Shown: positions 21,624-42,394, counted from the stretch's first letter. The stretch: 64,000 nucleotides of DNA from an uncultured Candidatus Saccharibacteria bacterium (GCA_964521185.1 CAZFRC010000003.1:2112-66111); one strand, 5' to 3'. Numbers and translations are program-made. The notes: generated by a model from the letters alone, not told the origin.

Positions 21624-22769
21624 TTAGAACGGATTCTTAGCTCCGCGAATCTCAAAATGGAGATGAGATCCCGTGGCACGTCCCGTTGCCCCCACATATC
21701 CAACCACTTCTCCCTGTTCAACCACTGCTCCAGTCGAGACGGCATTTTGGCTGTGATGAGCATACAGCGTCTGCGTACCGTTTGCGTGCGACACAACCAC
21801 ATAATTACCATACCCACCATTCCATCCTCCGGATCGGCTCACGACCACTGTTCCAGCAGCAGACGCGCGAACCGGCGTCCCAACTGGAGCGGCAATGTCA
21901 ATACCGTTATATCCGTGAATTCCTTGCGTTTTTCTGCCAATCGGAAGTGGGTGCATAAAGAATCCAACCAACTCAGGTCCGCTTGTGCCTCGTATGATCG
22001 AACGGCTCGACCCTGAATATGTTGTCACCACTGGAGCAACTTCGCCGTAAGGAATAATGAGAACATCTCCCACCGAAAGCGAAGATCCCTCTTCAAGCCC
22101 GTTGTAGGAGAGCACTTCTTCGAGATCACCTTTGTATTTTTTGACGATTCCGGCAATAGTTTCCCCTTTCACCACCGTATGTCGAACCCCTGTAACTGGC
22201 AATATGACCAGCATTTCTCCTTCTTTAATCAAAGTGCCTCGTTTAATGTCATTTGCCCATAAAATAGTATTGACTGAAACACCATACATTTCTGCAATTT
22301 CAGATAACGAGTCTCCGGACCGGACTACGTAAATACTGACCTGGTCAGTCTTTGGCGTTTCGTCTACAAAAGTGCCCGAGGGTCCTTCGGAGGGAAGAAT
22401 AAGAGCCCCATCAACTACAGTAATATCGCCTCCTCCTCGAGGAAGCAGCCGCTCTGGTGTGCGAAGCGCAAATAACAGTGGAATGTTTTGAGAGTTGTAT
22501 GCTGTTCCTTCTTGAGACACGGAAGATGAAAATGCTACCTCGGAAAAAAAGCGGCGAAGTGAAAACGCTTCAGGAATAAAGCCTGCATGAGCAAGAAGAG
22601 GCACGCCGACAAAAAGCACGAGCGTAAAAAAACCTACAATATATGTTCCCATGGACGGCTCTCGCCGAGAACTCAAGAAAGAGCTGGGATTTTTTGTATG
22701 AGAAGTGATACGCAATGTATTAAATGGTAATGTCACGAGTCCAGTATATAAATGGCTTAACAAAGCCAT
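21624..22769 (-). CDS. M23-family metallopeptidase with two LysM domains
   Basis: LysM repeats YVVRSGDSLSEIAEMYGVS and HTVVKGETIAGIVKKYKGD; M23 motifs HxGIDIAAPVGTPV and HLHFEIR; an alternative start at internal Met 22652 gives an N-terminal signal anchor. Confidence 0.88.
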   Translation of the reverse strand: MALLSHLYTGLVTLPFNTLRITSHTKNPSSFLSSRREPSMGTYIVGFFTLVLFVGVPLLAHAGFIPEAFSLRRFFSEVAFSSSVSQEGTAYNSQNIPLLFALRTPERLLPRGGGDITVVDGALILPSEGPSGTFVDETPKTDQVSIYVVRSGDSLSEIAEMYGVSVNTILWANDIKRGTLIKEGEMLVILPVTGVRHTVVKGETIAGIVKKYKGDLEEVLSYNGLEEGSSLSVGDVLIIPYGEVAPVVTTYSGSSRSIIRGTSGPELVGFFMHPLPIGRKTQGIHGYNGIDIAAPVGTPVRASAAGTVVVSRSGGWNGGYGNYVVVSHANGTQTLYAHHSQNAVSTGAVVEQGEVVGYVGATGRATGSHLHFEIRGAKNPF

Positions 22770-22947: not shown

Positions 22948-23328
22948 ATGAAGAAGATGGTGCGGTACTTCTGCATCTACCTAGTCATTTTCTTATCAAT
23001 TTTTTTCTCCGGGACACCATACGGTGTTCCACCCCCTACTATAGAACTAAAATACTATTCGGAAGTGGAGATATTTTACCTGGATGAAACAAGCACCCCA
23101 AGACCCACACAATGTGGGGTGAAGGGGGTTTTTCACGTATTATATCTCGAAGAAAGACAGAGAGTACTGTTGGCATCCACGGAGAATTCAGAGATTGTTT
23201 GCCTGTCAGGCAAACACAAAATTTTCATCGTGAATCCATTAAATCTAGAAATAATGTTTAACAAAAAAGTAATTCAGGCACAGAGAATTACTCTCAAAGA
23301 GTTGATAAAAAGAATGGGGGGGAAATGA
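22948..23328 (+). CDS. Hypothetical small secreted protein (signal peptide)
   Basis: Strong SD AGGAAGGAGGT upstream of the ATG; N-term MKKMVRYFCIYLVIFLSIFFSG; terminator-like structure downstream. Confidence 0.55.
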   Translation: MKKMVRYFCIYLVIFLSIFFSGTPYGVPPPTIELKYYSEVEIFYLDETSTPRPTQCGVKGVFHVLYLEERQRVLLASTENSEIVCLSGKHKIFIVNPLNLEIMFNKKVIQAQRITLKELIKRMGGK

Positions 23329-26227: not shown

Positions 26228-27226
26228 ATGCGACGCAATTCATACAAATGGCTCCCTAGCCGGTCGGTGGGCATTTCACTCGTTTTGGTTGGCGTATTGA
26301 TAACGGGAAGCGCGTGGTACACCACTTACGGTCACAACCTTTTTGCATTGAACACGGAAAGCATACCTGAATCCGGAAGCGTCGAAAGAGTTCTTGATTC
26401 CGATAACGACGGACTCAAAGACTGGGAAGAAACACTTTGGAACACCGATCCAAACCTCCCCGATTCTGATAATGACGGCATGTCTGACGGTGAAGAAGTG
26501 TCTCTGGGTACTGCCCCAAACGGAGAAGAATCGAGCAGCTTGGTAAATGAAATAATGGCAACGTCTTCCGAGTTTGTCGCCTCCGCCTCATCCCCCCTGA
26601 CCCCCACCGATCAATTTTCCCGCTTGTTTTTCAAGCATTTTATTGAATCCCAAAACACACAAGACCCGAGCGGACGCTTTAGTGATCCAAGAGAAATTGA
26701 GATCTTAATTGCAGAGGCTGATACGATTCGAAACAAACCTCCCAAATACACGAGAAGCGATATTTTGATAGTTCCAGACGTAACGCCTAAAGAACTTCGC
26801 GTCTACGGAAATGCGGTTAGCCACGCATACGCAATCCACACGAAACCGGGAGCTGAAGCGGAATTCGTGGTTTTAAACCGAGCGCTTGTCACAAACAACA
26901 AAGCGGATTTTGCGAAGCTTGCCGACGCCGCCGACATGTACTGGAACGGAGCTCAGGAGCTTCTGAAACTTCCAGCACCGGAATCATTGGCCGGGTTCCA
27001 GCTCGCGATCATTAACAGCACGGTGGGCCTTTCCTACGCCATCCGAGATTTGAGCGTGATGCCCGATGATCCTCTTCGAGGAGTGCTCGGATTGCGCTCA
27101 TATTATGAACGGTTTCAGTCGCTCGTGAGCAGCATATCTGCAATGTCCCGATATTTTGCCGCTTTTAACATACACTTTTCACCAACAGAAGACGGGTACA
27201 TGTTTGAAATCCTCAAAATCAAGTGA
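26228..27226 (+). CDS. Membrane-anchored or secreted protein with thrombospondin-type-3-like Ca-binding repeats
   Basis: N-terminal TM helix (SLVLVGVLITGSAW); two DSDNDGxxDxEE repeats (DSDNDGLKDWEE, DSDNDGMSDGEE); starts 4 nt after the rsmA stop; first gene of the T4SS-like block. Confidence 0.5.
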   Translation: MRRNSYKWLPSRSVGISLVLVGVLITGSAWYTTYGHNLFALNTESIPESGSVERVLDSDNDGLKDWEETLWNTDPNLPDSDNDGMSDGEEVSLGTAPNGEESSSLVNEIMATSSEFVASASSPLTPTDQFSRLFFKHFIESQNTQDPSGRFSDPREIEILIAEADTIRNKPPKYTRSDILIVPDVTPKELRVYGNAVSHAYAIHTKPGAEAEFVVLNRALVTNNKADFAKLADAADMYWNGAQELLKLPAPESLAGFQLAIINSTVGLSYAIRDLSVMPDDPLRGVLGLRSYYERFQSLVSSISAMSRYFAAFNIHFSPTEDGYMFEILKIK

Positions 27227-27304
27227 GCCTCCATCACACCGAGCTGTTATTCACAGCTACGCTACCGACTTTCGCCCTAAATCGCCCTATACTTAAGCTA
27301 CGTC

Positions 27305-28762
27305 ATGTATCAAGGGCAATTTCTTTCCCATTTTTTTGGGCATGAGCTGGTTAAAAGGATATTGACCGCCTGCGTGGTCATATCATTTGTCGCTCCGTCA
27401 ATATTTTCGAGCTTCGCTCCAAAAAAAGCCGACGCGTATTGGCTCGTTGAAGACCCCCTTCATATTGTCGAAACAGTCTACAACGGAGTGCTACTTGCGC
27501 TTAAATATGCCGAAAGCATACGGGCAAACTTTAAAGAGTATGTACTCGACCCCGCGGCGTATTTTCTTGCGCACGCCCTGCTGCAGCAAGTGACTCTTTC
27601 CGTAGTTGACTGGATAAATAGCGATTTTGAGGGTTGGCCTCGATTCGTTGACGATCCGGCCGTCTTTTTCACCAATGTCGCCGATCAGGCCGCGGGAGGA
27701 TTTATCCTCGAAAAAAGCGGGGACGACCCTTTGCTCAAAAAGAGTCTGGACTTTTTATGCAACCCGAGACTCCTCCGATTCGCGCTCGCAAACAATTATG
27801 TGCGCGGATTTTCCGACCGATACGCGTGCACCCTTTCAACCATTTCCGCCAATTGGGAAAATTTTACGACAAACATAGAAAATGGAGGGTGGGCTATGTG
27901 GTTTCAAATGAGCCAGCGGGGGCAGAATCCTTATGATGAATATGTAGTGTCAGCAGAGGAACTTTCTCGAAGAATACTGGGGGCGCAAAAAACGATTGAG
28001 AATCAGGCTAATCAGGGAAGCGGGTTTCTCCCTCAGTGGATGAAAGACTGTATCTATGCAGATCCAGAGAGTCCGGAAGCCCTAAACAAGGAAGGGACGC
28101 TCGCGAACTGTCCGGTTGTTGGTCCGGGACACACGGTATCCAGGCTTCTTGACAAAGCTTTGGGATCAAGCATTTTCGATGAGAAAAATTTTGCGGATGA
28201 GTTTGGAGAATCTATTTCCCTCATTTTTAACGCTCTTCTATCTAAAATATTCGAATGGGGTATCGCCGCGCTAGGTCAAGCCGGCACAGGTTCCAGCCCG
28301 ACAGGAGGATCGTTCTTGGACGATTTTCGTGGAACGGTTTCAGACAGTTTTACAGAGGTTGAAGATACTCTGGAAGAAAGAATGAGGCAGCAGCGCGCCC
28401 TTGAGGTTGAGTACCGATCAGAACTTGGATGCGAACCTGAACCTCCGCCAGCCGGATCCCCTTCCGCAACCGCAGAAAGCGAGGAGTGCCAGAAAGCCGC
28501 CAATAACATTAGAAAAATCGACGAGCTCCTTGATAAACTTGCCTCCGCAGAAGCATCCGAAGACCAAGAAGAATTGATTCGCGTGACGCAAGAAGTAAGC
28601 GCTGAATATTCTGAGCTTCTCCCAGACCTTACCAACCAAGGCAACATATTACGTGAGAATCAGGAATCCTCAAGTTCTGGCGGCGGCACTCCCCTTAACC
28701 CGCCACCAACCGGTACTGGTAGTAGCGAAAAACCGGGAACACCTCCAAATCCGGCTAACTGA
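27305..28762 (+). CDS. Hypothetical membrane-anchored protein with a Gly/Ser/Pro-rich C-terminus
   Basis: N-terminal TM helix (ILTACVVISFVAPSIFSSFA); no recognised domain; C-term SSSSGGGTPLNPPPTGTGSSEKPGTPPNPAN. Confidence 0.45.
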   Translation: MYQGQFLSHFFGHELVKRILTACVVISFVAPSIFSSFAPKKADAYWLVEDPLHIVETVYNGVLLALKYAESIRANFKEYVLDPAAYFLAHALLQQVTLSVVDWINSDFEGWPRFVDDPAVFFTNVADQAAGGFILEKSGDDPLLKKSLDFLCNPRLLRFALANNYVRGFSDRYACTLSTISANWENFTTNIENGGWAMWFQMSQRGQNPYDEYVVSAEELSRRILGAQKTIENQANQGSGFLPQWMKDCIYADPESPEALNKEGTLANCPVVGPGHTVSRLLDKALGSSIFDEKNFADEFGESISLIFNALLSKIFEWGIAALGQAGTGSSPTGGSFLDDFRGTVSDSFTEVEDTLEERMRQQRALEVEYRSELGCEPEPPPAGSPSATAESEECQKAANNIRKIDELLDKLASAEASEDQEELIRVTQEVSAEYSELLPDLTNQGNILRENQESSSSGGGTPLNPPPTGTGSSEKPGTPPNPAN

Positions 28763-28774
28763 TAATCCCATACA

Positions 28775-31324
28775 ATGGAAATGGAATACGCGCCGACACC
28801 CAGCGATCCCTCAACGGGACACTCTCGACAAAAAAAACTTTTTTTAAAGAAGGTGTTTATCAACTTTTTAACCTTCTTTTTCTTTTTTAATATTTCTTTT
28901 GTCTTTTTCCACATTATCTCGAGTGACCCAAAAGGACCGGGGTATGTAAGCGCGGACCCAACGAATCAAAATCAAAATATTGCTGTAACGGTAAGCAACG
29001 CAGCACAACCCGGAGCTGTTTATAGCTGTTATTGGTGGTTTCTTCTCGATTGTCATTTAAGAACAGGATTGGTAGGTATTGGTTCAATGGTTGTGTATGT
29101 GGGCGCACTTATCTTTAATCTCGCCATGGAATTCACCGTTATCAAAATGGGCTATTACATCAATGGAAACACGGGCATAGAAGCGGCGTGGATTGTCCTT
29201 CGTGATTTAGCCAATTTGGGCCTTGTGTACGCCCTTCTGCTTATCGGCATATCCACCATTCTCCGCATTAACCGATATGGATATCGAGTCCTTCTCGCAA
29301 GGATCATTATCGTCGCGCTTCTGGTAAATTTCAGTTTGTTTTTAACCAAGGGTGTGGTCGAGGTTTCCAACGTATTGGCGAATGGAGTATATAAGTTGAT
29401 CGCGGAACCAACAGGACCAGGGTGTAATGGGGGAGTTTCTACGGTTTCGAGCCGAATTTCCGAATGCTCCAACGCCGGAATTTCGGCCGCGATCGTTCAA
29501 ACTACCAGAATATCCTCTATATATGATGGAACCCCTATTGTTGAGAATAGCAACGTAGGTGGCGTTCAAAATATTTCCCAAGGATTTTTAGTGATGGTAT
29601 TTCTGATTATTACGGCCTTTGTGCTTTTGGGAGGAGCTCTTATGCTGATTACCCGCTACATTATACTGATATTCCTTATGATACTCTCGCCTTTAGCCTT
29701 TGTTGCGTGGACGCTACCCAAAACTGAACACTACGCGAAAGAATGGTGGGGAAAGCTCATTAACCAAAGCTTTTTTGCGCCTTTCTATTTGCTTATGATT
29801 TGGGTGTCGCTTAGCGTTTTAAGCGGCATTTCACCAAACCTTACCGGCTCTCTAGGGCAAGCCTTCTCTGGATCAGGTATTGCTGACGTGCTTCTTAATT
29901 TTTGCATCGTCACCGGACTTATGGTTGGTTCGCTTGTTGTCTCAAAAAAATTAGGAGCGTACGGCGCTGACACAGCAATAAACTGGACATCAAGATCAGG
30001 AGGCCGTGCCACGTTTGGGACTCTTGCATTTCTCCAACGCCATACAGTGGGTCGGCTTGCAAACCGAATGGCCACATGGCAAAGGCCGCGCGCATTTCTT
30101 CAAGGAAGCGTTCTTGGCCGATCCGTGCTCAAAGGAATACGCACGGTTGGAAGTTCGAGCTTTGACGTGCGCAACACCGAACTCGGCAGAGGGATAAGCA
30201 GATCGCTTGGAGGAGCAAATCTTGGAAAAGTTGGAGGGGAAGGTGGATATTCCGGACTTCAAAAACGAAGACAAGACGAAAGGGAGGCGGCGAGACGCGA
30301 CGCGATAAGGGAAGCGGAAAGGGTTCACAGCGGAGCCCTCAGCGCAACTCGTCGTCGCGAAATCGCAGGTAACATCGGAAATACGGCTGTAGCTCAAAAC
30401 CTGCGTCAAAGATATGTGGACAGAGCGGTACAAGAAGCGTCTTTAATAGCCGAATCTAAGGCTATTGAAATTGAGGAGCTTGAAAGGCGGCTTGAGGCAA
30501 ACAGGGCAAGAATGCAACTATCAGATACGCCCGAGAGACAGCAGGAGCTAGAGGCAGAAGCAAATCAAATCCAGAACCAGCTTCAAAGCGCGAGGGCAGC
30601 CATTCCTAATATAGACCAGGTTCGAATAAGAGCAACGCAAGAAGCTTCTGAAATGCAGTTCGATGAAAGACGCGTTGCTTCAACGCTTTCCACCATCGAA
30701 GAAACTTTTAGAAATATTCAAAACACCGTTGCTCGAAATGCAGAGGAAGTACAGAGGAGTTCACAAGAAGTACGAAGAACAGAAGAACAGCTGGCAGAGC
30801 TCCAAGCGGAAAATTCAAGACAAGACCTGACTCCTGAACAAAGAAATGCCTCACGTGCACAGCTTGAGAGTGCCACGCGCGCGCACCAAGAAGCACAAGA
30901 AAGACTGAGGCAAATGCAAAACAGACTGAGAGAAAGGCAGGTTGAACTTTCAAGAACGTGGACAGATCTCCAAGAGTGGAGAGGGCACTTACAGCAATAC
31001 ACTGAACCCGGAAATCGCGCGCGCAGAGAGTATTTGGACCGAATACGAAGAGGCGGGCAGTTTATGGAAAGAGTTGTAACGGGTAATTATCTCGCACCGA
31101 ACTCACAAACCCTTGATACTTATTTTAATCCCGTTGACCCTATCGCTCGAGCATTTTTGACACCGAATGAATACGAAGAACAGATTGCTGCGATTGAAAG
31201 GCATTGGAACCGTTCAGACTCCGAAAGATTAGCAGACGCAATAATGCAGCGTCTTGCAAGTCAAGGACAAGGAAATCGCCCTGGAAATCAGACGCCGCCA
31301 GCACAGCCAGCACAACCTCGTTAA
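28775..31324 (+). CDS. VirB6/TrbL-like polytopic membrane protein with a roughly 400-aa coiled-coil C-terminal extension
   Basis: At least 6 predicted TM helices between aa 105 and 400. The C-terminal half is Q/E/R-rich heptad-like (RLEANRARMQLSDTPERQQELEAEANQIQNQLQ...). An AT-rich non-coding-looking stretch at 28820-28920 lies inside the annotated N-terminus, so the true start may be the internal Met near 29088. Confidence 0.5.
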   Translation: MEMEYAPTPSDPSTGHSRQKKLFLKKVFINFLTFFFFFNISFVFFHIISSDPKGPGYVSADPTNQNQNIAVTVSNAAQPGAVYSCYWWFLLDCHLRTGLVGIGSMVVYVGALIFNLAMEFTVIKMGYYINGNTGIEAAWIVLRDLANLGLVYALLLIGISTILRINRYGYRVLLARIIIVALLVNFSLFLTKGVVEVSNVLANGVYKLIAEPTGPGCNGGVSTVSSRISECSNAGISAAIVQTTRISSIYDGTPIVENSNVGGVQNISQGFLVMVFLIITAFVLLGGALMLITRYIILIFLMILSPLAFVAWTLPKTEHYAKEWWGKLINQSFFAPFYLLMIWVSLSVLSGISPNLTGSLGQAFSGSGIADVLLNFCIVTGLMVGSLVVSKKLGAYGADTAINWTSRSGGRATFGTLAFLQRHTVGRLANRMATWQRPRAFLQGSVLGRSVLKGIRTVGSSSFDVRNTELGRGISRSLGGANLGKVGGEGGYSGLQKRRQDEREAARRDAIREAERVHSGALSATRRREIAGNIGNTAVAQNLRQRYVDRAVQEASLIAESKAIEIEELERRLEANRARMQLSDTPERQQELEAEANQIQNQLQSARAAIPNIDQVRIRATQEASEMQFDERRVASTLSTIEETFRNIQNTVARNAEEVQRSSQEVRRTEEQLAELQAENSRQDLTPEQRNASRAQLESATRAHQEAQERLRQMQNRLRERQVELSRTWTDLQEWRGHLQQYTEPGNRARREYLDRIRRGGQFMERVVTGNYLAPNSQTLDTYFNPVDPIARAFLTPNEYEEQIAAIERHWNRSDSERLADAIMQRLASQGQGNRPGNQTPPAQPAQPR

Positions 31325-31342
31325 TGTAATCTTTATGTAACT

Positions 31343-32008
31343 ATGCGATACCAAACAGATTCTAGAGAAACAGCGACCGTCATTCTTCGAGAACGGTTCA
31401 AAGAGCTTCCAAAGCCGATTCAAGATATTATTTCTTCGACAGACATCAGAAACGCGCTTCAAACAGTTTCAAACAAACACCGCCTCCATATTGATCAAGG
31501 GGGGATGCTCGAGAACGTTACCATGATGACTCTCATTGGACTCTACCGAATCGACGAATTTGAAACACGTCTTGCGCACACGCTCCAAATAGACACCGCT
31601 CTTGCAACGGCAATTGCAAACGATATTAATGCGTCGGTTTTTGCTCCCATCAGAGAACAGATACGGAATTATACCGATGCGTCCGCCAAAGAAGCTCCGG
31701 GGACTCCGGCGCAGACGACTTTTGAAGATAAGCCCGAAATCCCCAAACCAAATATCCCCCCTCAAACGATGCCCGCAAACACCTCCAACACGCCCAAGAT
31801 ATCGGAAGAGTCTAAGCAATCGCAGCCGAAAGATATGTCCGAACAAAAAGCAAAACAGGACGTAGCAACAATAAAGCTTGGTCTTACGTCTCCTCAAGAA
31901 ATAAATCTCGCCTCCTCTCAACGTCCGGTGCCACCAGATTCAAACCAGGAAGCCTCCAAAAAACCTTTGCAATCTCGAACAGATCCTTATCGGGAACCGC
32001 CTGAATAG
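31343..32008 (+). CDS. Hypothetical soluble protein with a Pro-rich C-terminus
   Basis: 221 aa; no TM helix and no recognised domain; co-directional with and tightly linked to the T4SS-like genes. Confidence 0.4.
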   Translation: MRYQTDSRETATVILRERFKELPKPIQDIISSTDIRNALQTVSNKHRLHIDQGGMLENVTMMTLIGLYRIDEFETRLAHTLQIDTALATAIANDINASVFAPIREQIRNYTDASAKEAPGTPAQTTFEDKPEIPKPNIPPQTMPANTSNTPKISEESKQSQPKDMSEQKAKQDVATIKLGLTSPQEINLASSQRPVPPDSNQEASKKPLQSRTDPYREPPE

Positions 32009-32095
32009 TGGGACTATAGAGATTTTGGAGCAGCGCACACTCGATACCTTCGGCGCGCTTCAAATTATGAATAGGCAGCATAATACACACACTCT

Positions 32096-32536
32096 ATGCG
32101 ATACCAAGTTCCTCAATTTATTGACATAGAAGATAAGATATTCGGTCCCCTTACCGGCAAGCAATTTGTATACCTTGCGGGTGCGGGAGGATTTTTCGTG
32201 GCGATCTATACATTGTACGGGCTATTTGTGGCGATTTTGGTAAGTCTCCCTATCGTTGCCCTTGCGGTTGCTCTGGCATTTCTTCGGATAAATGAGCTTC
32301 CGTTTGCAACCATACTTGAGTCCGCAATCTATTTTTACATCCGACGAAAAATTTTTCTTTGGAAGAAAAATCGGCCTTCAAATCCAACACAAGGTTCAAA
32401 TGTAAAGACTTCCCCGGAAGGGGTGGCCCCCTATGTTCCAAAATTGTCCGAGAGCCGGCTTAAAGATATTTCTTGGAGTCTGGATATTCATGAGCGTCTC
32501 GACGAAAGTGATCGGACACATAGCCCAAATGAATAA
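32096..32536 (+). CDS. VirB3-like small two-TM membrane protein
   Basis: 146 aa; two adjacent TM helices (FVYLAGAGGFFVAIYTLYGLFVAILV / LPIVALAVALAFL); lies immediately upstream of the VirB4 homolog, the typical VirB3-VirB4 order. Confidence 0.4.
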   Translation: MRYQVPQFIDIEDKIFGPLTGKQFVYLAGAGGFFVAIYTLYGLFVAILVSLPIVALAVALAFLRINELPFATILESAIYFYIRRKIFLWKKNRPSNPTQGSNVKTSPEGVAPYVPKLSESRLKDISWSLDIHERLDESDRTHSPNE

Positions 32537-32561
32537 AAGGATATAGCATTGTATAAGTCCT

Positions 32562-33224
32562 ATGACTACCACTAACCCGTTGCAGAAAGAAAACACTACG
32601 CAAGATTTTGTTCCTATTCAAGAGGTGCGTGACGGAGTCGTTATTCTGAAAGACGGGGGATTACGCGGAGTATTCATGGCATCATCAATCAATCTTGCAC
32701 TTAAATCAGAAGACGAACAGCGGGCAATTTTGGAACAATTTGCGCAAATGCTCGATTCGGTGGATTTCTCCGTTCAGTTTGTTGTGCAATCAAGAAAACT
32801 TGATATCAGACCCTATATTGCGCTACTTGAAAAACGGTATACTGAGGTTGTTGGCGATTTACTTAAGATTCAGGTTCGAGAATACATTGAATTTGTTAAG
32901 ACGTTTTCGGAAAATTCTAATATCATGACGAAAAGTTTTTTTATTGTAGTTCCTTATACGCCAATCCCGCTTGAAGGAGGCGTTGCAGGGCTTCTTTCCC
33001 TGACGAAAAAGAAAACGCCCCAACAAAAAATACAGGGAACAGGAACGGCGTTTGAAGAAAGCCGTTCCCAACTCGAACAACGGATGTCTGTGGTCGAACA
33101 AGGTCTTGCGCGATGCGGGGTCCGTGTTGCACGGCTTGGCACCGAAGAAGTGATCGAGCTGTTTTACCGTCTTTTTAACCTTGGAGAGCTCGAACGGCCG
33201 ATTCCACTTGATAATCGAGCGTAA
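32562..33224 (+). CDS. VirB4 N-terminal (CagE/TrbE/VirB4-type) domain, separate ORF ending in TAA, in frame with the ATPase ORF
   Basis: FVPIQEVRDGVVILKDGGLRGVFMASSINLALKSEDEQRAILEQFAQMLDSV resembles the VirB4 N-domain consensus; same reading frame as 33231-35102, and a single TAA at 33222-33224 separates them. Confidence 0.5.
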   Translation: MTTTNPLQKENTTQDFVPIQEVRDGVVILKDGGLRGVFMASSINLALKSEDEQRAILEQFAQMLDSVDFSVQFVVQSRKLDIRPYIALLEKRYTEVVGDLLKIQVREYIEFVKTFSENSNIMTKSFFIVVPYTPIPLEGGVAGLLSLTKKKTPQQKIQGTGTAFEESRSQLEQRMSVVEQGLARCGVRVARLGTEEVIELFYRLFNLGELERPIPLDNRA

Positions 33225-33230
33225 ATCACC

Positions 33231-35102
33231 ATGGGACTTCTTGATTTTATCACAAAGAAAAAAGAGCCTGAATCCCGCATAGAGGCGGTTCTTCCGCAGG
33301 AAATTTACCAAGCGGGGACACTTGAACTCAAAGACGTGTTGGCGCCTTCGGCGCTTCAAATAACTCCACGCGAACTGAATTTGGGAGATAAAATAGTGCG
33401 TACATTTTTTATTATTTCTTATCCTCGCTACCTAAACGATGGATGGTTCTCCCCGATTATCAATCTGGATAAGGTGTTTGATATTTCTATTTTCGCCCAT
33501 CCGATCGATACTGCGCAGATTCTTCGGAAATTCCAAAAGCGCGTAGCGGAAGTGGAAAGTCAAATTCACACGCGAGAAGAGAAAGGCCTCGTGAGAGATC
33601 CAAAACTGGATACTTCATACGAAGATCTTGAACAGCTCCGAGATCGGCTACAACAAGCCCAAGAACGATTGTTTGATGTTGGGGTATACATTTCAATTTA
33701 CGGAGACTCGAAAGACGAGCTTGACAAGGCGGAGTCGGAAATCAAATCGATTCTTGAGGCGCAGCTCGTATACATCAAACCGGCGCTATTTCAGCAAGAA
33801 CAAGGGTATCGAAGCGTCATTCCGACAGCAACCGATGAACTGAAAGTGCATTCAAAACTCGACTCGTCCCCATTTTCAAGCCTGTTTCCGTTCATATCTT
33901 TCGATCTTACCGCTGACAGAGGAATTCTATACGGAATTAATCGCCACAACTCATCGCTGATTCTCTTCGATAGATTTTCGCTTGAAAACTATAATTCCGT
34001 AACGTTTGCAAAATCCGGTTCAGGAAAATCCTATGCAATAAAACTCGAGATTCTTCGGACGCTTATGTTTGACGTCGACATTATTATTATTGATCCTGAG
34101 CGAGAATACGAGTATTTGGCTGAAGCGGTGGGAGGAAGGTATTTCAATATTTCACTATCCTCCGGTCACACCATTAATCCTTTTGATTTGCCCCCTCTTG
34201 GAGAAGACGAAACCCCGACGAACGTGCTGCGTTCCAACATCATAAACCTTGTCGGGCTTTTTCGAATCATGCTTGGCGGCCTCACCCCCGAAGAAGACGC
34301 GATTATTGATCGCGCCATCACCGAAACGTACGCGCTTAAAGATATCACCGGGAATAACGATTTTACAAACCTCACGCCCCCCCTCCTTTCCGATTTTGAA
34401 TTGGTGCTTGGAGGCATGGAAGGAAGCGAGTCCTTGGTGCAACGTCTTAGTAAATACACGAAAGGAACGTGGGCGGGATTCATTAATCGGCCAACGAACA
34501 TCGATATCAACAAAAAACTTGTCGTGTTTTCCATTAGAGACATGGAAGACGACCTGAAGCCGGTCGCCATGTATATCATCACGAAATACATTTGGACGGC
34601 CATCCGTCGAGAACTTAAAAAACGGATTCTCGTGGTGGATGAGGCGTGGTGGATGATGAAGTATGAAGATACGGCGTCTTTTCTTTACTCTATCGCAAAA
34701 CGTGGTCGCAAATACTATTTGGGGCTCGCCACGATCACCCAAGACGTGGATGATTTTATGAAATCGCCCTACGGCATTCCCATGCTTACGAACTCATCGA
34801 TTCAGCTTCTGCTTAAACAGTCACCAACATCGATTGATGTTCTTCAAAAAACATTTAACCTCACCGACGAAGAAAAATACCTCCTGCTTGAATCCGGCGT
34901 GGGAGAGGGCATATTTTTTGCCGGCCTAAAACATGTGGCTATTAAAATTATTGCCTCGTACACAGAAGACCAGATTATTACCTCGGACCCTTCCCAAATT
35001 CTCCTTATTCAAAAAGCCCGGCAAGCACAAGAAGACGCCCTTGGTACAAGCAATGAATCTCCTTCACGCGCAAAAGCACGTAACGAGATGCCTATCAAAT
35101 AG
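33231..35102 (+). CDS. VirB4/TraC/CagE-family T4SS ATPase (C-terminal ATPase portion)
   Basis: Walker A FAKSGSGKSYAIK; Walker B ILVVDEAWWMM; RGRKYYLGLATITQ motif; 623 aa. Confidence 0.8.
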   Translation: MGLLDFITKKKEPESRIEAVLPQEIYQAGTLELKDVLAPSALQITPRELNLGDKIVRTFFIISYPRYLNDGWFSPIINLDKVFDISIFAHPIDTAQILRKFQKRVAEVESQIHTREEKGLVRDPKLDTSYEDLEQLRDRLQQAQERLFDVGVYISIYGDSKDELDKAESEIKSILEAQLVYIKPALFQQEQGYRSVIPTATDELKVHSKLDSSPFSSLFPFISFDLTADRGILYGINRHNSSLILFDRFSLENYNSVTFAKSGSGKSYAIKLEILRTLMFDVDIIIIDPEREYEYLAEAVGGRYFNISLSSGHTINPFDLPPLGEDETPTNVLRSNIINLVGLFRIMLGGLTPEEDAIIDRAITETYALKDITGNNDFTNLTPPLLSDFELVLGGMEGSESLVQRLSKYTKGTWAGFINRPTNIDINKKLVVFSIRDMEDDLKPVAMYIITKYIWTAIRRELKKRILVVDEAWWMMKYEDTASFLYSIAKRGRKYYLGLATITQDVDDFMKSPYGIPMLTNSSIQLLLKQSPTSIDVLQKTFNLTDEEKYLLLESGVGEGIFFAGLKHVAIKIIASYTEDQIITSDPSQILLIQKARQAQEDALGTSNESPSRAKARNEMPIK

Positions 35103-35105
35103 AAT

Positions 35106-35909
35106 ATGGGCGACACGGAAGCCTTAGAGAGGCGGGCAAAGAACGAAGACAAACTCAAACTACGGATCTCTCCTGAAGTGGGGGCTCTGATGTTTGGCGT
35201 TGCCCTCTTTGTTGACGGTCTTCAGGGGGTCATAGGGATTTTCGGATTAATACCGTTTGTTGGTTTTTTGTTTTCCTTAGTGGGCGCAATGATTTGGCTG
35301 TTGTACACCCTTGGTTTTTGGCTTTGGTTTCACATTCTTGGAGTAACATTTTTTGAGGCCATTGATCAGTCGGGATGGAAGGGCGTAGCCTTATCTTTAG
35401 CAAAAAATATAGTTCGAAGCGTCATCCCTTTAGTTATGTTTTTTCTCAGCTTCATTCCTTTTTTTGGACCTTTACTGACTGGCATTGTGCCAGACGTTGC
35501 GGTTGCGGTAGGCGCGACGATTTTAATTTCTTGGGCGCAAGATAAAGCGCTTTCTGCAGAAACGAAAATGAAAATAGCCCAACAAAAAATGGCACGGATG
35601 GTCCGTCAACGCCAAATGGAAGAAGAAATGGAAGAAGAAGAGGCACAAGCAGAAATGGAAAAGATTGCCGAGGAGGAATATCGACAAAGAGAAGAAGAGA
35701 ATGAGGAACGGGAGAACGACGAGGAGAAAAGTGTAGCAGTGGAATACCTAAAGAGGGAAGAGGAGGAAATGCGCGCTAACGCGCTTCATCAAGGAAATTC
35801 TGCGGTCACGCCAAATGGAGCGGAAGAGTTGTCGCAATATCCAAACCCGCCGCGCCGTACAAAAAGCGGCCGCGTGAATTCCCCATCGTCCTTCCGACAA
35901 CAAACATGA
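35106..35909 (+). CDS. Hypothetical polytopic membrane protein with an acidic coiled-coil tail
   Basis: Four or more TM helices in aa 25-150; E-rich C-terminus (EEEMEEEEAQAEMEKIAEEEYRQREEENEERENDEE); 4 nt after the VirB4 stop. Confidence 0.45.
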   Translation: MGDTEALERRAKNEDKLKLRISPEVGALMFGVALFVDGLQGVIGIFGLIPFVGFLFSLVGAMIWLLYTLGFWLWFHILGVTFFEAIDQSGWKGVALSLAKNIVRSVIPLVMFFLSFIPFFGPLLTGIVPDVAVAVGATILISWAQDKALSAETKMKIAQQKMARMVRQRQMEEEMEEEEAQAEMEKIAEEEYRQREEENEERENDEEKSVAVEYLKREEEEMRANALHQGNSAVTPNGAEELSQYPNPPRRTKSGRVNSPSSFRQQT

Positions 35910-35990
35910 TGCGCAAGATTTTCAGGTGGACCATGGGGTGTGGAGTAGTGGAACATATTGATTGAATGAGGATATATAATACGAAGTACT

Positions 35991-37070
35991 ATGGGGCATT
36001 ATGCGCGTTTGTTTGGAATACTGACTGGGATCTTACTTTTTTCCACTGTACAGGTCGGCGTCGTACTGTCTCAAGCATACATTGACGCTTCTTACGGTTC
36101 TTCATATCAAGATTCTTATTCTGGGTTTTCGATAAGCCCTTTTTCATCTGAAAACGGGCAGTTGATTGGTGCGGCTGAAGGGACACTTTTTTCCATATCC
36201 ACCAAACCCTCAAGACCTCGCGGCCTTGAGCCGGTTACTCTGACCCTTGAAGGGCCTCCTTCGGTAATAAAAAATTCGTATATAGATTGGTTTATCAACC
36301 GAACCCTGACCGCAGAGGGATATGGGAAAACCTTCCTGAAGGTCACGGCTCCTCAGGTTGGGGCCAATATGGAAATTGTGGTTCATATTACTGAACAAAA
36401 TGGAACCACGCATGTGAGCTCATACACGATGATACCCTCGGAAGTCGAGCTCCTATGGAGCACGGAAACTTACGTTCCCCCCATGTTCAAAGGAAAGGCT
36501 CTTGCTTCCTACATGGCACCCGTCCGAGTAACGGCAATTCCTTTTATTCCAGAGGAAGACGGGTTGGCGAAACCAGAAACCCTGATGTACCAGTGGAGCG
36601 TAAATGGGCGCGTCCGAAAAGAATCGGGCATCGGCTCGGATCATATTGACATCCTTCCGGGGCTTCGACAGGCGGTTACCGTTGCTGTTGTCGTATCAAA
36701 CCCTCGAAACCGAGGCGTCGCAAGTATGCAAATTAATATTCCTCGGCTTTCCTCTTTTGTCCAGTTTTATGAAGTCGATCCGATCTTTGGGCTACGGCTC
36801 GAACGTACGCTTGGGGCCGCACATTCATTTAGAACCCCGGAAAGCAGCATTGCGGCAGTGCCTTATTACATGGGAACCCCTACGACGGCCGACGCGTTGT
36901 TTGAATGGAGTATTGATGGCCGCACGTTAGACACGGCCATAGGAGACACCCTAACGCTCCGGCCTTTCCAAGAAGAGCGCGTTGGGCAACGCTCAACGGT
37001 GTCGGTTAGGGTAACCAACCAGAATGATTTTATGACGTGGGCAAACAAGTCAATCGTGGTTCAGTATTAA
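35991..37070 (+). CDS. Hypothetical secreted protein (signal peptide), beta-rich
   Basis: N-term MGHYARLFGILTGILLFSTVQVGVVLSQA; no recognised domain. Confidence 0.45.
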   Translation: MGHYARLFGILTGILLFSTVQVGVVLSQAYIDASYGSSYQDSYSGFSISPFSSENGQLIGAAEGTLFSISTKPSRPRGLEPVTLTLEGPPSVIKNSYIDWFINRTLTAEGYGKTFLKVTAPQVGANMEIVVHITEQNGTTHVSSYTMIPSEVELLWSTETYVPPMFKGKALASYMAPVRVTAIPFIPEEDGLAKPETLMYQWSVNGRVRKESGIGSDHIDILPGLRQAVTVAVVVSNPRNRGVASMQINIPRLSSFVQFYEVDPIFGLRLERTLGAAHSFRTPESSIAAVPYYMGTPTTADALFEWSIDGRTLDTAIGDTLTLRPFQEERVGQRSTVSVRVTNQNDFMTWANKSIVVQY

Positions 37071-37637
37071 ATGAATATGAAAATTTTTCAAAATATTCGA
37101 AACCGTAAAAAGAAGATTTCGTTTTTCCTTGGTGTGGCAAACACCCTGATACTCGCAATGCCGTTTGTTGCATTTGGAGAAGCGCCTACCTCATACATAC
37201 ATCTTGTTCCTCTTCCGGGAGTTACTGCAGGGATTATTGAAAATGTGCCGGCGTTTCTGAACCAGCTTGTGGGAATAACGATTGGCGCGGGCTCTATTCT
37301 CGCAGTCATCATGATTGGAGTCGGCGGCATAGAATACATGGCAAGCGACGCGGTTTTCAGCAAAGACGAAGCACGAAAAAGAATGAGCGACGCGGTTATC
37401 GGCTTATTGATACTTCTCGGCTCTTATGTTCTCCTCTACACTATCAATCCCGACATTGTGAATCTGAACATTTTTCGAAACGCGGAACAATTGGATCCGC
37501 TAAATCTGAGCGCCCCTTCTCCGGGAGGGGCTATCCAGCCACGACCATACCAGGCTACCCCCGAAGGACACTGTCTATATGGGGGGGCATACTATGCTGG
37601 TAAATGTATAGATAAATCCTTAATCCCCAATTTATAA
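37071..37637 (+). CDS. Pilin-like (TrbC/VirB2-like) protein: signal peptide plus two hydrophobic helices
   Basis: Starts directly after the preceding stop (TAAATG); signal and hydrophobic segments ISFFLGVANTLILAMPFVAFG and VGITIGAGSILAVIMIGVGGIEYMA; size and topology resemble conjugative or CPR pilin-like proteins. Confidence 0.5.
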   Translation: MNMKIFQNIRNRKKKISFFLGVANTLILAMPFVAFGEAPTSYIHLVPLPGVTAGIIENVPAFLNQLVGITIGAGSILAVIMIGVGGIEYMASDAVFSKDEARKRMSDAVIGLLILLGSYVLLYTINPDIVNLNIFRNAEQLDPLNLSAPSPGGAIQPRPYQATPEGHCLYGGAYYAGKCIDKSLIPNL

Positions 37638-38944
37638 TGAACACTTCTAAGAAAAAAATAATTGCGGGAGCGGGCGCGTTGGGAATCGTGATCATGTTGT
37701 TATTCGCTTATCTTTTTTGGATTCAAGATGCAGAAGAAATAAATGTTGTTGTCGATGGAACGTTCCCTACGAAAGAAGCGCCCGTGAACCCCGACGGCAG
37801 TCCTCGAACGGAAACAGGTTCCGAAGAGTTTTTGCTTCCCGATAACACAGAAATTCCGTTCGAACGAGTACCCCTTATTCAAGTCTCAGAAACTGCGGGA
37901 GCGGGTGCTGGATTTTACACCGACTCCACGGGGCATGAGTTTGTTCGATACGTAGATCGGGAAAATGGGCACATATTCCAGTTCGATCTTAAAACCGAAG
38001 CGCGCCAAAAAATATCTGGAGTGACGCTTCCCGGAGTAATCGAAGCGGTTTGGAACTCAAAAGGTACCGACGTAGCCCTTCGCTACCTTGACGAGACCTT
38101 CATGGTTCGCACGTTTATCGCGTCTTTGTCTCCCAAAAGCGATGGCACGGTTACCATTACTGGCCAATTCCTTCCAGACAGCGTCACTTCTATTGCTCCT
38201 TATTCTGCGAAAAATGTTACCGGGTTCGCCTACACGAGAGTCTTTGGAGGGGGCGCTTCCTTGTTTATACAAGAAGAGAGCGGTGTGGCCAAAGAGGTGT
38301 TTCGTTCTCCGTTTCCGGAATGGATTATAGTCTCTTCTTTGCACGGAGCGATACTGCTTGGGTCACGGGCTTCAACAAAAGAGACTGGCGTAGTGCTCAA
38401 AATTGACGGGGAATCAGGTGGGGTCACGAAAATGGCTTCCGGAGCGCTTGGCATGTCGGCAACAATAGATCCAACCGGAACATGGCTCCTTACTTCTGAG
38501 TATGCTGATGGCTCCATGCGTACATTTGTTCAAAACACACGAGCCCCAATGATTTCGGAGCCCGTTCAAACTTCCATAAACACTTTGGCAGAAAAATGTG
38601 TGTGGGGGGTTAAAAATGCGGCATCGTCAACCCCACGGGTGTTTTGCGCTTCCCCCATTAATTGGAGCGAGGTGGGTGTTGACGTTCCAGACAGCTGGTA
38701 TCGAGGAGAGGTGTCTTTCTCGGACGAGTTTGTCTATTTTGACCCTATAACCAACACTCCCTTTCCCCTTCTGGTGCCAGAACTCGGCATGAACATGCCT
38801 GTTGACGCAGTGCATCCCATAGCAAACCATACAGGAGAATATGTGGTTTTCAAAAATAAACCGGACGGGATCATTTGGGCGCTCCCCGTTCACAAGGCCG
38901 AAGCAGCAGTGAATAAGTTTATAGAGGCGCACGAAGGCGAGTAG
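37637..38944 (+). CDS. Hypothetical membrane-anchored extracytoplasmic protein
   Basis: Start overlaps the previous stop (TAATG); TM helix IIAGAGALGIVIMLLFAYLFW; beta-rich body; last gene of the cluster. Confidence 0.45.
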   Translation: MNTSKKKIIAGAGALGIVIMLLFAYLFWIQDAEEINVVVDGTFPTKEAPVNPDGSPRTETGSEEFLLPDNTEIPFERVPLIQVSETAGAGAGFYTDSTGHEFVRYVDRENGHIFQFDLKTEARQKISGVTLPGVIEAVWNSKGTDVALRYLDETFMVRTFIASLSPKSDGTVTITGQFLPDSVTSIAPYSAKNVTGFAYTRVFGGGASLFIQEESGVAKEVFRSPFPEWIIVSSLHGAILLGSRASTKETGVVLKIDGESGGVTKMASGALGMSATIDPTGTWLLTSEYADGSMRTFVQNTRAPMISEPVQTSINTLAEKCVWGVKNAASSTPRVFCASPINWSEVGVDVPDSWYRGEVSFSDEFVYFDPITNTPFPLLVPELGMNMPVDAVHPIANHTGEYVVFKNKPDGIIWALPVHKAEAAVNKFIEAHEGE

Positions 38945-40123: not shown

Positions 40124-40482
40124 TGACCCATTCTACGAGGCTGTGCCTTCGTGAGCAAATGGAGAGCTTTTTGGATTGCTTCGCGCGCGTCCATCACAAG
40201 ATCTTCAAATGATATTGAGTCTGTTTCTTTAGATCGCACAATTACAAATGCCTGAGGGGAAAAATCGTCAGGCATTGCCCTACGAAAAGCCGCTGCCATT
40301 CGTCTTCGGATGGCGTTTCGACGTGTTGCTTTCGTTTCTATCTTTTTTGAGACACTGCAAGAAACGCGCGGATTTCCTTCGTTTTTTGCAAAGAGTACCG
40401 TAACGTGCGGAGTAGTCACCCGAACTCCCGAATTAATCAATCTGCTAATGTCCTCCCTTGAAAGCCTCTTGCGTTTGGGCAT
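40120..40482 (-). CDS. rnpA: Ribonuclease P protein component
   Basis: VSCSVSKKIETKATRRNAIRRRMAAAFR RNR motif; 120 aa; overlaps the yidC start by 4 nt. Confidence 0.85.
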   Translation of the reverse strand: MPKRKRLSREDISRLINSGVRVTTPHVTVLFAKNEGNPRVSCSVSKKIETKATRRNAIRRRMAAAFRRAMPDDFSPQAFVIVRSKETDSISFEDLVMDAREAIQKALHLLTKAQPRRMGQ

Positions 40483-40494
40483 TTATATAGACGT

Positions 40495-40632
40495 TTATAC
40501 GGAAAGGCGCGATCGTCCTTTCCGACGTCGGCGAACGAGCACCCTCTTCCCTGCGGGGGTTCTTGACCGAACTCGAAATCCGTGTGTAGTATTCCTTTTT
40601 TTCTTTTTTGGTTGGTAGATGCGTTTTGGCAT
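40495..40632 (-). CDS. rpmH: 50S ribosomal protein L34
   Basis: Hand translation of the minus strand gives [45 protein letters not shown], the L34 consensus. It is absent from the ORF track because it is under 60 aa; the 83-aa track ORF is in another frame. Confidence 0.85.
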
Positions 40633-40728
40633 ATAAGAAATGTACCAGAATCAATTCCAAGTGTCTACTAAACGCGCCCATCAACAAGTAATACACAGCA
40701 TGTGAACATATAGAATCGTTTTCGGGAA

Positions 40729-42117
40729 GTGTCGAGTTTGTTTATGAAAGATATAATTGTCGGAATGGAAGCGATTGACACCAGACAATTATGGGAAAAT
40801 GTATTGGTTGATATCGAACTATCGATTCCGCGCGCAACGTTTAACACCTGGTTTCGCGGAACTCGCATCGTCCGCTACGAGGAGGGGACGGTATACGTGG
40901 GAGTGCCGAACAATCTTGCGCGCGACTGGTTTAAGGATAAATACCATAAACTTATTCTCCGCGCGCTGCGAACACTTGCCGAAGACGTCCGTTCTGTTGA
41001 ATATATCATCGCAAAACAGGAATCCAGCCGCGAACACGCCGAACGCATCATACGGAAAACTCCCACAAACGAGCTGCCGTTTCAAGAGCTTTATATTGAT
41101 CGTAGAGATCATTTGAACCCCCGGTACACGTTTGAAACTCTCGTGGTGGGGCCTTTTAACGAACTTGCACACGCGGCCGCCCAAGCAATCGTGAAAAGCC
41201 CCGCAATCACCTATAACCCCCTCTATATCTATGGAAATACCGGATATGGAAAAACTCATCTGGCACAGGCTGTAGGAAATCAGATTAAAAAAATTAGTCC
41301 AGGGAAAAAAATTTATTACGTCACTTCAGAAAAGTTCACTATCGACGTATTAAACGGCATACAAACCAACTCTATGCCAAACTTTAAAGACCGCTACCGA
41401 CAGTATGACGTTCTGATTATGGACGACGTACAGTTTGTTTCAGGAAAAGAAAAAACCCAAGAAGAGCTTTTTCATCTTTTTAACGTACTCTATGACAATA
41501 ATAAACAGATTATCTTTACCTCTGACAAACATCCTGGATATCTTCAAAATATCGAAGAGCGCCTGAAATCCCGCTTTAAACAAGGAATGGTGGTTGATAT
41601 TTCAGATCCGGATTTTGAATCCCGCCTTGCAATTATTATGACCAAAGCCGCTGCAAATAATTTTACCCTAACCCCCGAAATTGCCGAACACTTGGCAAGA
41701 TCTATCGACGGAAATATTCGGGAACTTGAGGGTGCATTAAATGCGGTGATGCTCCAGTCTCAGATACACGATCGAACACTCACCATTGCAGACGTTCGAA
41801 ATCTTATAAAAGATAGTGGAAAAACCAAAAAAACAATCTCAACCAAGGAAATAGTTAAGAAAGTTGCCGAATTTTACAATATTGAAGAACAAATCATTTA
41901 CGACAAGACACGAAAAAAAGAAGTGGTGCGTCCACGACAAATCATTATGTTTATTTTGAGAGAGGATTTTCGTGAATCTTTCCCTTCGATTGGAGAAAAG
42001 CTTGGAGGTCGCGACCATACTACCGTTATCCATTCCTGTGAAAAGATTAGAGGGGATATTCAAACCGATTCCCTTCTTCTCCAGGAAATTAACCAGATCC
42101 GTGCGATGCTTAAGTAG
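40729..42117 (+). CDS. dnaA: Chromosomal replication initiator DnaA
   Basis: Domain I ...LWENVLVDIELSIPRATFNTWF; AAA+ Walker A GNTGYGKTHLAQA; box VII; C-terminal HTH HTTVIHSC. The track begins with GTG 40729; canonical N-termini suggest ATG 40744 or 40765. Confidence 0.93.
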   Translation: MSSLFMKDIIVGMEAIDTRQLWENVLVDIELSIPRATFNTWFRGTRIVRYEEGTVYVGVPNNLARDWFKDKYHKLILRALRTLAEDVRSVEYIIAKQESSREHAERIIRKTPTNELPFQELYIDRRDHLNPRYTFETLVVGPFNELAHAAAQAIVKSPAITYNPLYIYGNTGYGKTHLAQAVGNQIKKISPGKKIYYVTSEKFTIDVLNGIQTNSMPNFKDRYRQYDVLIMDDVQFVSGKEKTQEELFHLFNVLYDNNKQIIFTSDKHPGYLQNIEERLKSRFKQGMVVDISDPDFESRLAIIMTKAAANNFTLTPEIAEHLARSIDGNIRELEGALNAVMLQSQIHDRTLTIADVRNLIKDSGKTKKTISTKEIVKKVAEFYNIEEQIIYDKTRKKEVVRPRQIIMFILREDFRESFPSIGEKLGGRDHTTVIHSCEKIRGDIQTDSLLLQEINQIRAMLK

Positions 42118-42394
42118 GGTTCCTCGGTAGGAAGTAAGAAAGCGTGCGAAGTATGTGTGAATATTCCGTGTATAACTTGAAAACTTTTCTGGAAATTTAT
42201 TGTTTTCAAGCCATTCAACCCCAATACCATAACGGCTCTCATTTAGAAATGGGCATTTTCTCCCCAGCTTCTCCGATTTCGATGGATAAAAATACTTTGA
42301 AAAATATAGCGCCCAGGGGTTTGTCCCCATATCCACACTAATAATAGTAATAGTAAAGTATCTTTCCTTTTAAATAATAAGTACTGTTATACCC
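42118..42394. promoter_or_regulatory. Candidate oriC (dnaA-dnaN spacer): DnaA-box-like sites and an AT-rich unwinding element
   Basis: aTATCCACA at 42329-42337 (one mismatch to TTATCCACA); degenerate boxes gaTGGATAA (42282-42290) and TGTGtGAat (42154-42162); an AT-rich run at 42338-42390 precedes dnaN. Confidence 0.5.

Follow-up and report, generated by a model that had tools for sequence, protein, structure and literature searches.

A putative single-pilin type IV secretion locus of Patescibacteria type and its unrecognised partner families

A stretch of 64,000 nucleotides from an uncultured Candidatus Saccharibacteria bacterium (GCA_964521185.1 CAZFRC010000003.1:2112-66111; hereafter the window) contains, at positions 26228-38944, a packed block of genes that resembles a type IV secretion system (T4SS). 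This raises the question of what machine the block encodes and which of its genes belong to that machine. A first-pass annotation had proposed a minimal, non-conjugative T4SS of the kind seen in episymbiotic bacteria with small genomes, a view that our analysis supports and that has already been reported for such organisms (PMC12102498, PMC10633639). Judged by homology, the locus is almost certainly a Patescibacteria-type chromosomal T4SS. We further consider it highly likely that the system is of Paceibacteria/Parcubacteria type, vertically inherited and derived from the mating-pair formation class FATA (MPF-FATA), and that the locus is devoid of genes for DNA processing or coupling. The system as such was described between 2023 and 2025, and the present locus is an ordinary, compact, single-pilin Paceibacteria version of it. 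What is new here is the inventory of unrecognised conserved members, four of which (o1, o2, o4 and o11 below) are not described in PMC12102498 or PMC10633639.

Motor, platform and pilin

The block consists of eleven plus-strand open reading frames (ORFs; o1 to o11, Table 1), which, a single 1-nt junction apart, do not overlap and are separated by gaps of -1 to 87 nt. The dense packing and common strand described earlier thus hold, but the number of ORFs is eleven instead of twelve. Likewise, the junctions quoted as start/stop overlaps have the sequences and positions given, although only TAATG (37635-37639, o10/o11) is an overlap, of 1 nt; TAAATG (37068-37073, o9/o10) is an abutment, and the o7/o8 junction (35102/35106) is a 3-nt gap. 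For comparison with relatives, we used 66 loci. Of these, 43 come from genomes and have complete flanks of 10 kb, and the other 23 are long loci from metagenomes, found through the o2 motif WIN[SNT]GFxGxP; all 66 are labelled Parcubacteria/Paceibacteria-type and represent one clade and one genomic context.

The 623-aa product of o7 carries both the Walker A (GSGKS) and Walker B (ILVVDEAWW) motifs that had led to its naming as VirB4, and it matches the Pfam family PF19044 (TraG P-loop, 1.3e-22). Against the curated NCBIfam model of the CD1110 family (NF045971 conju_CD1110), it scored 368.6 bits (6.1e-110), above the cut-off of 325 bits, and covered positions 183-733 of the 752 in the model. The scores with other curated models were 261.6 bits for the VirB4 of the Mycoplasma integrative and conjugative element (ICE), 176.9 for the F-type and 116.7 for VirB4/CagE, while that for TcpF, the clostridial conjugation ATPase, was negligible (15 bits). 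The two best-scoring models, CD1110 and Mycoplasma ICE, are both of the MPF-FATA type, and CTn2 of C. difficile has been named a prototype of this class in a review. In pairwise BLAST of the cluster proteins against those of the conjugative plasmid pCF10, the sole match was that of VirB4 to PrgJ (residues 215-772, 25% identity, 3e-37).

The part of the VirB4 model that o7 leaves uncovered is found in o6. This protein matches the TrsD/TraD model NF041427 (2.6e-11) as well as the first 120-130 or so positions of the VirB4 models NF045975 (7.6e-11) and NF045971 (1.4e-5), all below the cut-offs set for full-length proteins. On this profile coverage, o6 and o7 together are a split VirB4, as had been suggested, and they are separate genes in all 43 full-length genome loci. 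At 33222-33233, o6 and o7 lie in the same frame, with TAA and two codons (ATC ACC) before the ATG of o7. A frameshifted, pseudogenised or readthrough VirB4 was considered and rejected, as the two genes occur in 43/43 loci with differing frames and spacings.

The gene o5 is separated from the VirB4 gene by the TrsD-like gene alone. Its product exceeds the cut-off of the PrgI family (PF12666; 3.4e-12, 47.2 bits vs 27) and has one broad, hairpin-sized hydrophobic stretch, which bears out the VirB3-like assignment made earlier. A simple hydropathy scan detected no hydrophobic segment in o4, o6 or o7.

For the VirB6/TrbL-like protein o3, the outcome depends on the copy examined. The window copy stays below the TrbL threshold (PF04610; E 0.0022, 18.2 bits vs 25.9), but 14 of 55 orthologues match this family (best 1.9e-7). 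The match to the CD3337/EF1877 model (NF046089) is weak (20 bits vs a cut-off of 120), and PrgH of pCF10, though the top hhalign pairing, gave a probability of only 7.8%. The hydropathy scan found eight hydrophobic segments followed by a hydrophilic tail of 459 aa (from residue 441: R 14%, E 11%, Q 10%), consistent with the at least six transmembrane helices and the Q/E/R-rich tail noted in the first-pass annotation; the coiled coil claimed for this tail is suggested by weak SMC-type matches only. The charged tail is kept as a feature in the orthologues (median 366 aa), but its sequence is not conserved. In addition, o3 lies upstream of the VirB3 gene, the position that VirB6 occupies in pCF10. 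Taken together, o3 is probably a true VirB6/TrbL homologue. Extended VirB6 proteins have a polytopic N-terminal domain and a C-terminal region that is large and either hydrophilic or unstructured, at a total of 700-900 aa (PMC12857230), and o3 fits this description.

A similar picture was obtained for the pilin candidate o10. The window copy scores just below the cut-off of the pilin family PF18895 (1.4e-5, 25.5 bits vs 26.6), whereas 55 of 58 orthologues match it (best 4.7e-10) and seven match TrbC/VirB2. The topology, a signal or transmembrane segment plus two hydrophobic helices, is pilin-like, as had been recognised. o10 is the sole T4SS pilin gene in the window, with no paralogue elsewhere in it. 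Orthologues vary in length from 125 to 483 aa among the relatives, and individual ones bear C-terminal Peptidase_M15_3, VanY, 3D, CHAP or He_PIG domains, which are of peptidoglycan-hydrolase or Ig (immunoglobulin)-like type. This length variation and these C-terminal domains suggest that the pilin C-terminus is exposed and able to bear wall-cutting modules.

These data show that, as far as homology can tell, one co-directional block encodes a T4SS inner-membrane platform (VirB3, split VirB4 and VirB6) together with one VirB2-like pilin.

Table 1. Members of the T4SS block and the upstream peptidase gene, with the number of genome loci (of 43) in which each block member was found and its median identity among relatives
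Feature	Position	Strand	Description	Loci (of 43)	Median identity
M23 peptidase + LysM	21624..22769	-	PF01551 9.4e-30, LysM 1.4e-19; upstream of uvrD, outside 26228-38944		
o1	26228..27226	+	332 aa, membrane-anchored; two calcium-binding TSP3-type repeats; C-terminal domain of about 220 aa without family	29	26%
o2	27305..28762	+	485 aa, exported or anchored; all-alpha four-cysteine domain	38	30%
o3	28775..31324	+	849 aa, extended VirB6/TrbL-like polytopic membrane protein	41	28%
o4	31343..32008	+	221 aa, no transmembrane segment; C-terminal DPYRE(P) peptide	21 (tblastn; under-counted, see text)	
o5	32096..32536	+	146 aa, PrgI/VirB3-like small membrane protein	43	45%
o6	32562..33224	+	220 aa, TrsD-like; equivalent of the VirB4 N-terminal domain	43	59%
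o7	33231..35102	+	623 aa, VirB4 ATPase, middle and C-terminal P-loop domains	43	77%
o8	35106..35909	+	267 aa, polytopic membrane protein with acidic tail; variable slot	1 (tblastn)	
o9	35991..37070	+	359 aa, signal-peptide protein with three Ig-like beta-sandwich repeats	43	27%
o10	37071..37637	+	188 aa, VirB2-like T4SS pilin; short cysteine-containing C-terminal extension	41	37%
o11	37637..38944	+	435 aa, N-terminal membrane anchor, probable beta-propeller; invariant cysteine pair near the C-terminus	43	27%

Relatives and chromosomal setting

Gene order and strand are identical in the 43 genome and 23 metagenome loci, so that the synteny looked for in related genomes is present, and such recurrence of the eleven-slot arrangement is far beyond chance. 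The flanking genes are retained to a similar degree (rsmA in 39 of the 43 genome loci, yidC and dnaA in 42, dnaN in 40), and in the metagenome loci comM, the minus-strand M23 peptidase gene and uvrD are also syntenic upstream. VirB4 is the most conserved protein of the neighbourhood. Its median identity of 77% exceeds that of DnaA (40729-42117; 57%), UvrD (52%) and DnaN (39%), which indicates very strong purifying selection on VirB4; the corresponding values for YidC and RsmA are 44% and 42%. More than 8000 VirB4 homologues were found in the protein collection, including 120 listed matches of 77-83% identity. All taxon-named homologues among the matches listed belong to the Patescibacteria (candidate phyla radiation, CPR) and are of Parcubacteria/Paceibacteria type (Kaiserbacteria, Campbellbacteria, Paceibacterota), to which a genome scan for VirB4 relatives added Taylorbacteria and Zambryskibacteria.

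The cluster follows directly on rsmA (= ksgA), which abuts it and is preceded by comM, the M23/LysM gene and uvrD; the placement immediately downstream of uvrD-rsmA is confirmed by Pfam identification of these neighbours. On the 3' side are jag, yidC, rnpA, rpmH, dnaA, dnaN, a class A penicillin-binding protein gene, ruvC, ruvB, pilB and polA, with rnpA, rpmH, dnaA and dnaN all at most 3.5 kb downstream. By gene context, the T4SS block sits beside the replication origin (oriC), while the origin itself was not pinpointed by a search for DnaA boxes: no consensus cluster was detected in the rpmH-dnaA (40482-40729) or dnaA-dnaN (42117-42395) intergenic region, and matches to TTATCCACA with at most one mismatch were no more frequent across the window than expected by chance. 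Promoter and terminator scans likewise gave matches no commoner than chance.

Could the block instead be an integrated conjugative element, either decayed or ordinary, with its relaxase and coupling protein encoded just beyond the window? The CD1110 family of VirB4 was typed on conjugative elements, and a tyrosine recombinase is encoded at 13896-14870. However, this recombinase is 11 kb away, behind uvrD, comM, the polynucleotide phosphorylase gene and other core genes. About 26 kb upstream and 25 kb downstream of the cluster carry housekeeping functions only, and the guanine-plus-cytosine (GC) content is flat over cluster and flanks (0.44-0.49), without a compositional break. A Pfam scan of 43 window ORFs, including every ORF of at least 250 aa, recovered no relaxase, type IV coupling protein (T4CP; VirD4 or TcpA), VirB11 or flanking integrase, in line with the absence of relaxase, VirD4 and VirB11 noted at first; the sole T2SSE-family ATPase in this set is PilB. 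As had been stated, the type IV pilus genes are separate from the cluster, with pilB and pilM at other places in the window. Furthermore, the chromosomal site of the block is shared by 66 related loci, and VirB4 surpasses DnaA in conservation. Of about 3000 Patescibacteria genomes, only 103 have relaxases, and T4CP genes are rarely near virB4 in this group (PMC12102498). An integrated conjugative element was rejected on these grounds and is hardly credible here.

The locus matches the T4SS that has been published for this group. VirB4 was found in 2417 of 3035 Patescibacteria genomes, as a monophyletic clade nested in MPF-FATA, and the genes near virB4 encode TrsD, PrgI/VirB3, VirB6 and VirB2-like pilins of the families PF18895 and PF04956 (Quinonero-Coronel et al. 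2025, PMC12102498). In Paceibacteria, the T4SS locus adjoins dnaA, dnaN, rnpA, ksgA and rpmH (PMC12102498). The present locus shares with this clade the VirB4, the separate TrsD, PrgI/VirB3, a probable VirB6, the PF18895 pilin, the lack of a relaxase (among the window ORFs scanned) and the origin-side housekeeping neighbours. Saccharimonadia and Microgenomatia have arrays of 2-11 pilin genes, in contrast to the one pilin gene here.

The best-studied relative is the cluster SEML1_0006-0019 of Southlakia epibionticum, which transposon sequencing (Tn-seq) showed to be essential for epibiotic growth (Wang et al. 2023, PMC10633639). According to Table S2 of that study, it has the order VirB6-PrgI-TrsD-VirB4, VirB6-like proteins of about 1000 aa, a lysozyme and an NTF2-like protein, along with an exported Ig-like (PEGA) protein, a six-gene pilin array and large unassigned essential proteins (PMC10633639). 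The gene order, the very long VirB6-like protein and the exported Ig-like protein recur in our locus, whereas neither the lysozyme-type VirB1 (SEML1_0006) nor the NTF2-type VirB8-like protein (SEML1_0012) has a recognised equivalent inside the cluster.

Among conjugative plasmids of the MPF-FATA class, pCF10 (Prg/Pcf) and pGO1 (Trs) likewise have a CD1110/PrgJ-type VirB4 and a PrgI-family VirB3; the order VirB6, VirB3, VirB4 is that of pCF10, and the free-standing TrsD-like protein is as in pGO1. Unlike these plasmid systems, the present one sits at a fixed site on the chromosome and is inherited vertically. The coupling protein PcfC, the relaxase PcfG, the hydrolase PrgK, the VirB8-like PrgL and PrgD and the adhesin PrgB of pCF10 were not found here, while the VirB2-like pilin, absent from Gram-positive conjugative systems, is present. 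Moreover, o3 is about three times as long as PrgH (849 vs 266 aa). Its polytopic N-terminal domain and large hydrophilic C-terminal region recall Orf15 of Tn916, a member of the CD3337-EF1877 family (MPF-FA), and the extended VirB6 of Rickettsiales, but the match to the Tn916-type model is far below cut-off and the VirB4 here is of MPF-FATA, not MPF-FA, type. The tail of o3 also differs from the extended VirB6 family in being charged and R/E/Q-rich, with its presence and not its sequence conserved. To our knowledge, the Patescibacteria T4SS is the only T4SS that is essential for its own carrier.

The accessory families

The six members o1, o2, o4, o8, o9 and o11 are without counterpart in any characterised T4SS. 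In hhalign comparisons the accessory families did not match the Prg/Pcf proteins of pCF10, and in searches with hidden Markov models (HMMs) the six did not match T4SS families; nor do they have a paralogue elsewhere in the window. Hydropathy scanning predicts one N-terminal anchor or signal peptide each for o1, o2, o9 and o11.

The Ca-binding repeats ascribed earlier to a secreted protein are those of o1, which matches PF18884 (TSP3_bac) at 2.1e-11 through repeats of the DxDxDG type; with its family profile, only calcium-binding loops (Bap, calmodulin) were retrieved from the PDB. The conserved all-alpha domain of o2 has four near-invariant cysteines and the motif WINSGFxGxPxF and is followed by a helical, G/S/P-rich tail. 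No known family or fold matched o2. Its own family comprises at least 3800 clusters at 50% identity and is encoded next to VirB6. The metagenome contigs retrieved by the o2 motif showed this family in the same clade and context only.

In o4, a small helical N-terminal domain and a proline-rich disordered linker lead to an invariant C-terminal DPYRE(P)(I/L)(E) motif, which in the window is the terminal DPYREPPE (motif at 31982-31996). In 55 of 63 loci, an ORF just ahead of the PrgI gene has DP[YF]R[ED] within its last 12 residues, which means that the family was under-counted by tblastn (21/43). Pfam, NCBIfam and profile searches gave no family match for o4, and a literature search on the DPYRE motif gave nothing relevant. 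The motif resembles a short linear motif that is tethered and serves docking.

o8 has three hydrophobic segments and no match in Pfam or NCBIfam. Between VirB4 and o9, many loci have a polytopic membrane ORF of 110-340 aa, often with an FFDxxQ...IPxxG-like start; about 13 loci lack an ORF at this place. In the o9 family, the consensus motif LxYxWxxNG occurs three times, 11 of 62 orthologues match BiPBP_C and 4 of 62 match Ig_3, and there is a weak profile match (E 0.009) to the Ig-like phage protein Hoc. o11 is probably a membrane-anchored beta-propeller; structure prediction from its single sequence gave a poor result.

Tentatively, we propose a module specific to Patescibacteria, extracytoplasmic and regulatory, of which the accessory families would be genuine subunits; on sequence evidence, the chances of this reading fall a little short of even. 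The opposite reading takes all six for unrelated envelope proteins, placed among T4SS genes only through the collinearity of the entire origin-proximal region in this clade, and restricts the T4SS proper to o3, o5, o6, o7 and o10. It draws on the lack of family matches noted above and on the equal synteny of comM, M23, uvrD, rsmA, yidC and dnaA, through which gene order ceases to be specific evidence. Yet the accessory genes are interleaved with the T4SS genes at the same close spacing and on the same strand; o9 and o11 occur in every genome locus, flanking the pilin gene on both sides; no paralogues exist elsewhere in the window; and in Southlakia, too, the cluster includes an exported Ig-like protein along with large essential proteins that lack an assignment. 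Considering both sides, we regard the unrelated-protein reading as unlikely. If the six are subunits, they provide a parts list for an essential machine. They are not annotated in published HMM-based surveys and offer concrete targets in cultivable relatives, and the value of the present analysis rests on this inventory of conserved partner proteins rather than on the T4SS itself.

Proposed working of the machine

In the mechanism that we propose, VirB4 would dock on VirB3 and VirB6 and extract the pilin from the membrane, and the pilin would then be polymerised on the VirB6 platform into a conjugative-type pilus or a short conduit. Such docking has its basis in the structure of the R388 system, and in F-type systems VirB4 (TraC) drives pilus biogenesis without VirB11. 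We lean moderately towards a machine that builds a pilus-like surface structure, by analogy with these systems. Outside the membrane, o1, o2, o9 and o11 could serve as wall-spanning scaffold, pilus tip or adhesin, or in host-surface recognition; calcium-binding, Cys-rich all-alpha, Ig-like and beta-propeller proteins, respectively, would suit a walled cell that has no outer membrane. Specifically, o2 might be a factor of the pilus tip or stalk, comparable to VirB5, and o9 and o11, which bracket the pilin gene, might form a wall-spanning or host-binding part in place of VirB7, VirB9 and VirB10. On the cytoplasmic side, the DPYRE peptide of o4 and the charged tail of VirB6 would act, the peptide perhaps docking on the VirB4 motor or on that tail. 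The machine would mediate contact-dependent exchange with the host cell, and not conjugation.

The function of the Patescibacteria system is treated as unknown in a review (PMC12857230) and a perspective (PMC11665869), with effector delivery and DNA or nutrient import as candidates. Import of host DNA, nucleotides or other macromolecules, which would feed a cell unable to make them and which differs from our reading in substrate and direction only, was favoured or raised in PMC11665869 and in the concluding remarks of PMC12102498. Like archaeal Ced and Helicobacter pylori ComB, the present locus pairs a VirB4-type motor with neither relaxase nor coupling protein among the window ORFs scanned, in an organism dependent on external nucleotides, and its VirB4 does show a weak partial match to the CedB model (1.5e-8). 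However, this match is marginal (33.8 bits vs a cut-off of 700), our searches recognised no CedA-type partners (CedA, CedA1, CedA2), and ComB-type VirB7-10 components are likewise lacking here. In addition, transformation of Southlakia depends on comEC and is non-essential, whereas its T4SS is essential (PMC12857230, PMC11665869), and the sequence carries no sign of transport direction. Import therefore seems to us a fairly unlikely role.

The other candidate is an exporter that injects effector proteins into or onto the host bacterium and so subverts it. T4SSs that secrete proteins without a T4CP do exist, such as Bordetella Ptl and Brucella VirB (PMC12102498, PMC12857230), and protein export or an alternative role was suggested by Wang et al. 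2023 (PMC10633639). The exported o1, o2 and o9 could then be substrates or tip factors. On the other hand, neither the cluster nor its adjacent genes yielded a candidate effector in which a toxic or enzymatic domain could be recognised, and the exported members keep fixed slots in more than 40 species, a pattern that suits structural parts better than effectors, which evolve fast. Effector export is thus also rather doubtful.

Several points weigh against the reading of the block as a vertically inherited T4SS with Patescibacteria-specific subunits. VirB8-like proteins of the NTF2 fold and VirB1-like hydrolases are normally core parts of Gram-positive T4SSs, and neither was recognised inside the cluster, whose proteins and profiles gave no match to VirB8, PrgL, PrgD or TraM with Pfam, NCBIfam, PDB profiles or hhalign. 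The VirB6-like and pilin proteins of the window each fall just under their Pfam cut-offs, and o8 is poorly conserved. Since the synteny extends to housekeeping neighbours, it is no proof that o1, o2, o4, o8, o9 and o11 are machine parts. We know of no observation of pilus formation by any Patescibacteria T4SS. Finally, the genome may hold a T4CP gene outside the 64-kb window; most genomes of Patescibacteria have VirD4-like genes, as a rule at a long distance from virB4 (PMC12102498).

As for VirB8, it is almost confined to the class ABY1 among Patescibacteria, and VirB1 homologues, among which ones with M23/LysM domains are reported, lie near virB4 chiefly in Paceibacteria (PMC12102498). The window has an M23/LysM gene 3.5 kb upstream of the cluster, and all 23 long metagenome loci have it at this position, in the same orientation. 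Its product is a candidate stand-in for VirB1 and may equally be a housekeeping enzyme.

The other large ORFs of the window include those for RNase Y, MgsA, a trypsin-like protease, a Mur ligase and PilM. Four ORFs of 126-420 aa had no Pfam match at the thresholds used (18299-19561, 22948-23328, 54658-55557 and 59878-60660). The tyrosine recombinase gene mentioned above lies on the minus strand, encodes XerC/D-like domains and adjoins a gene for an exo/endonuclease-phosphatase family protein (13056-13856, also minus). Around this recombinase neighbourhood, the GC content drops to 0.39 (12001-14000).

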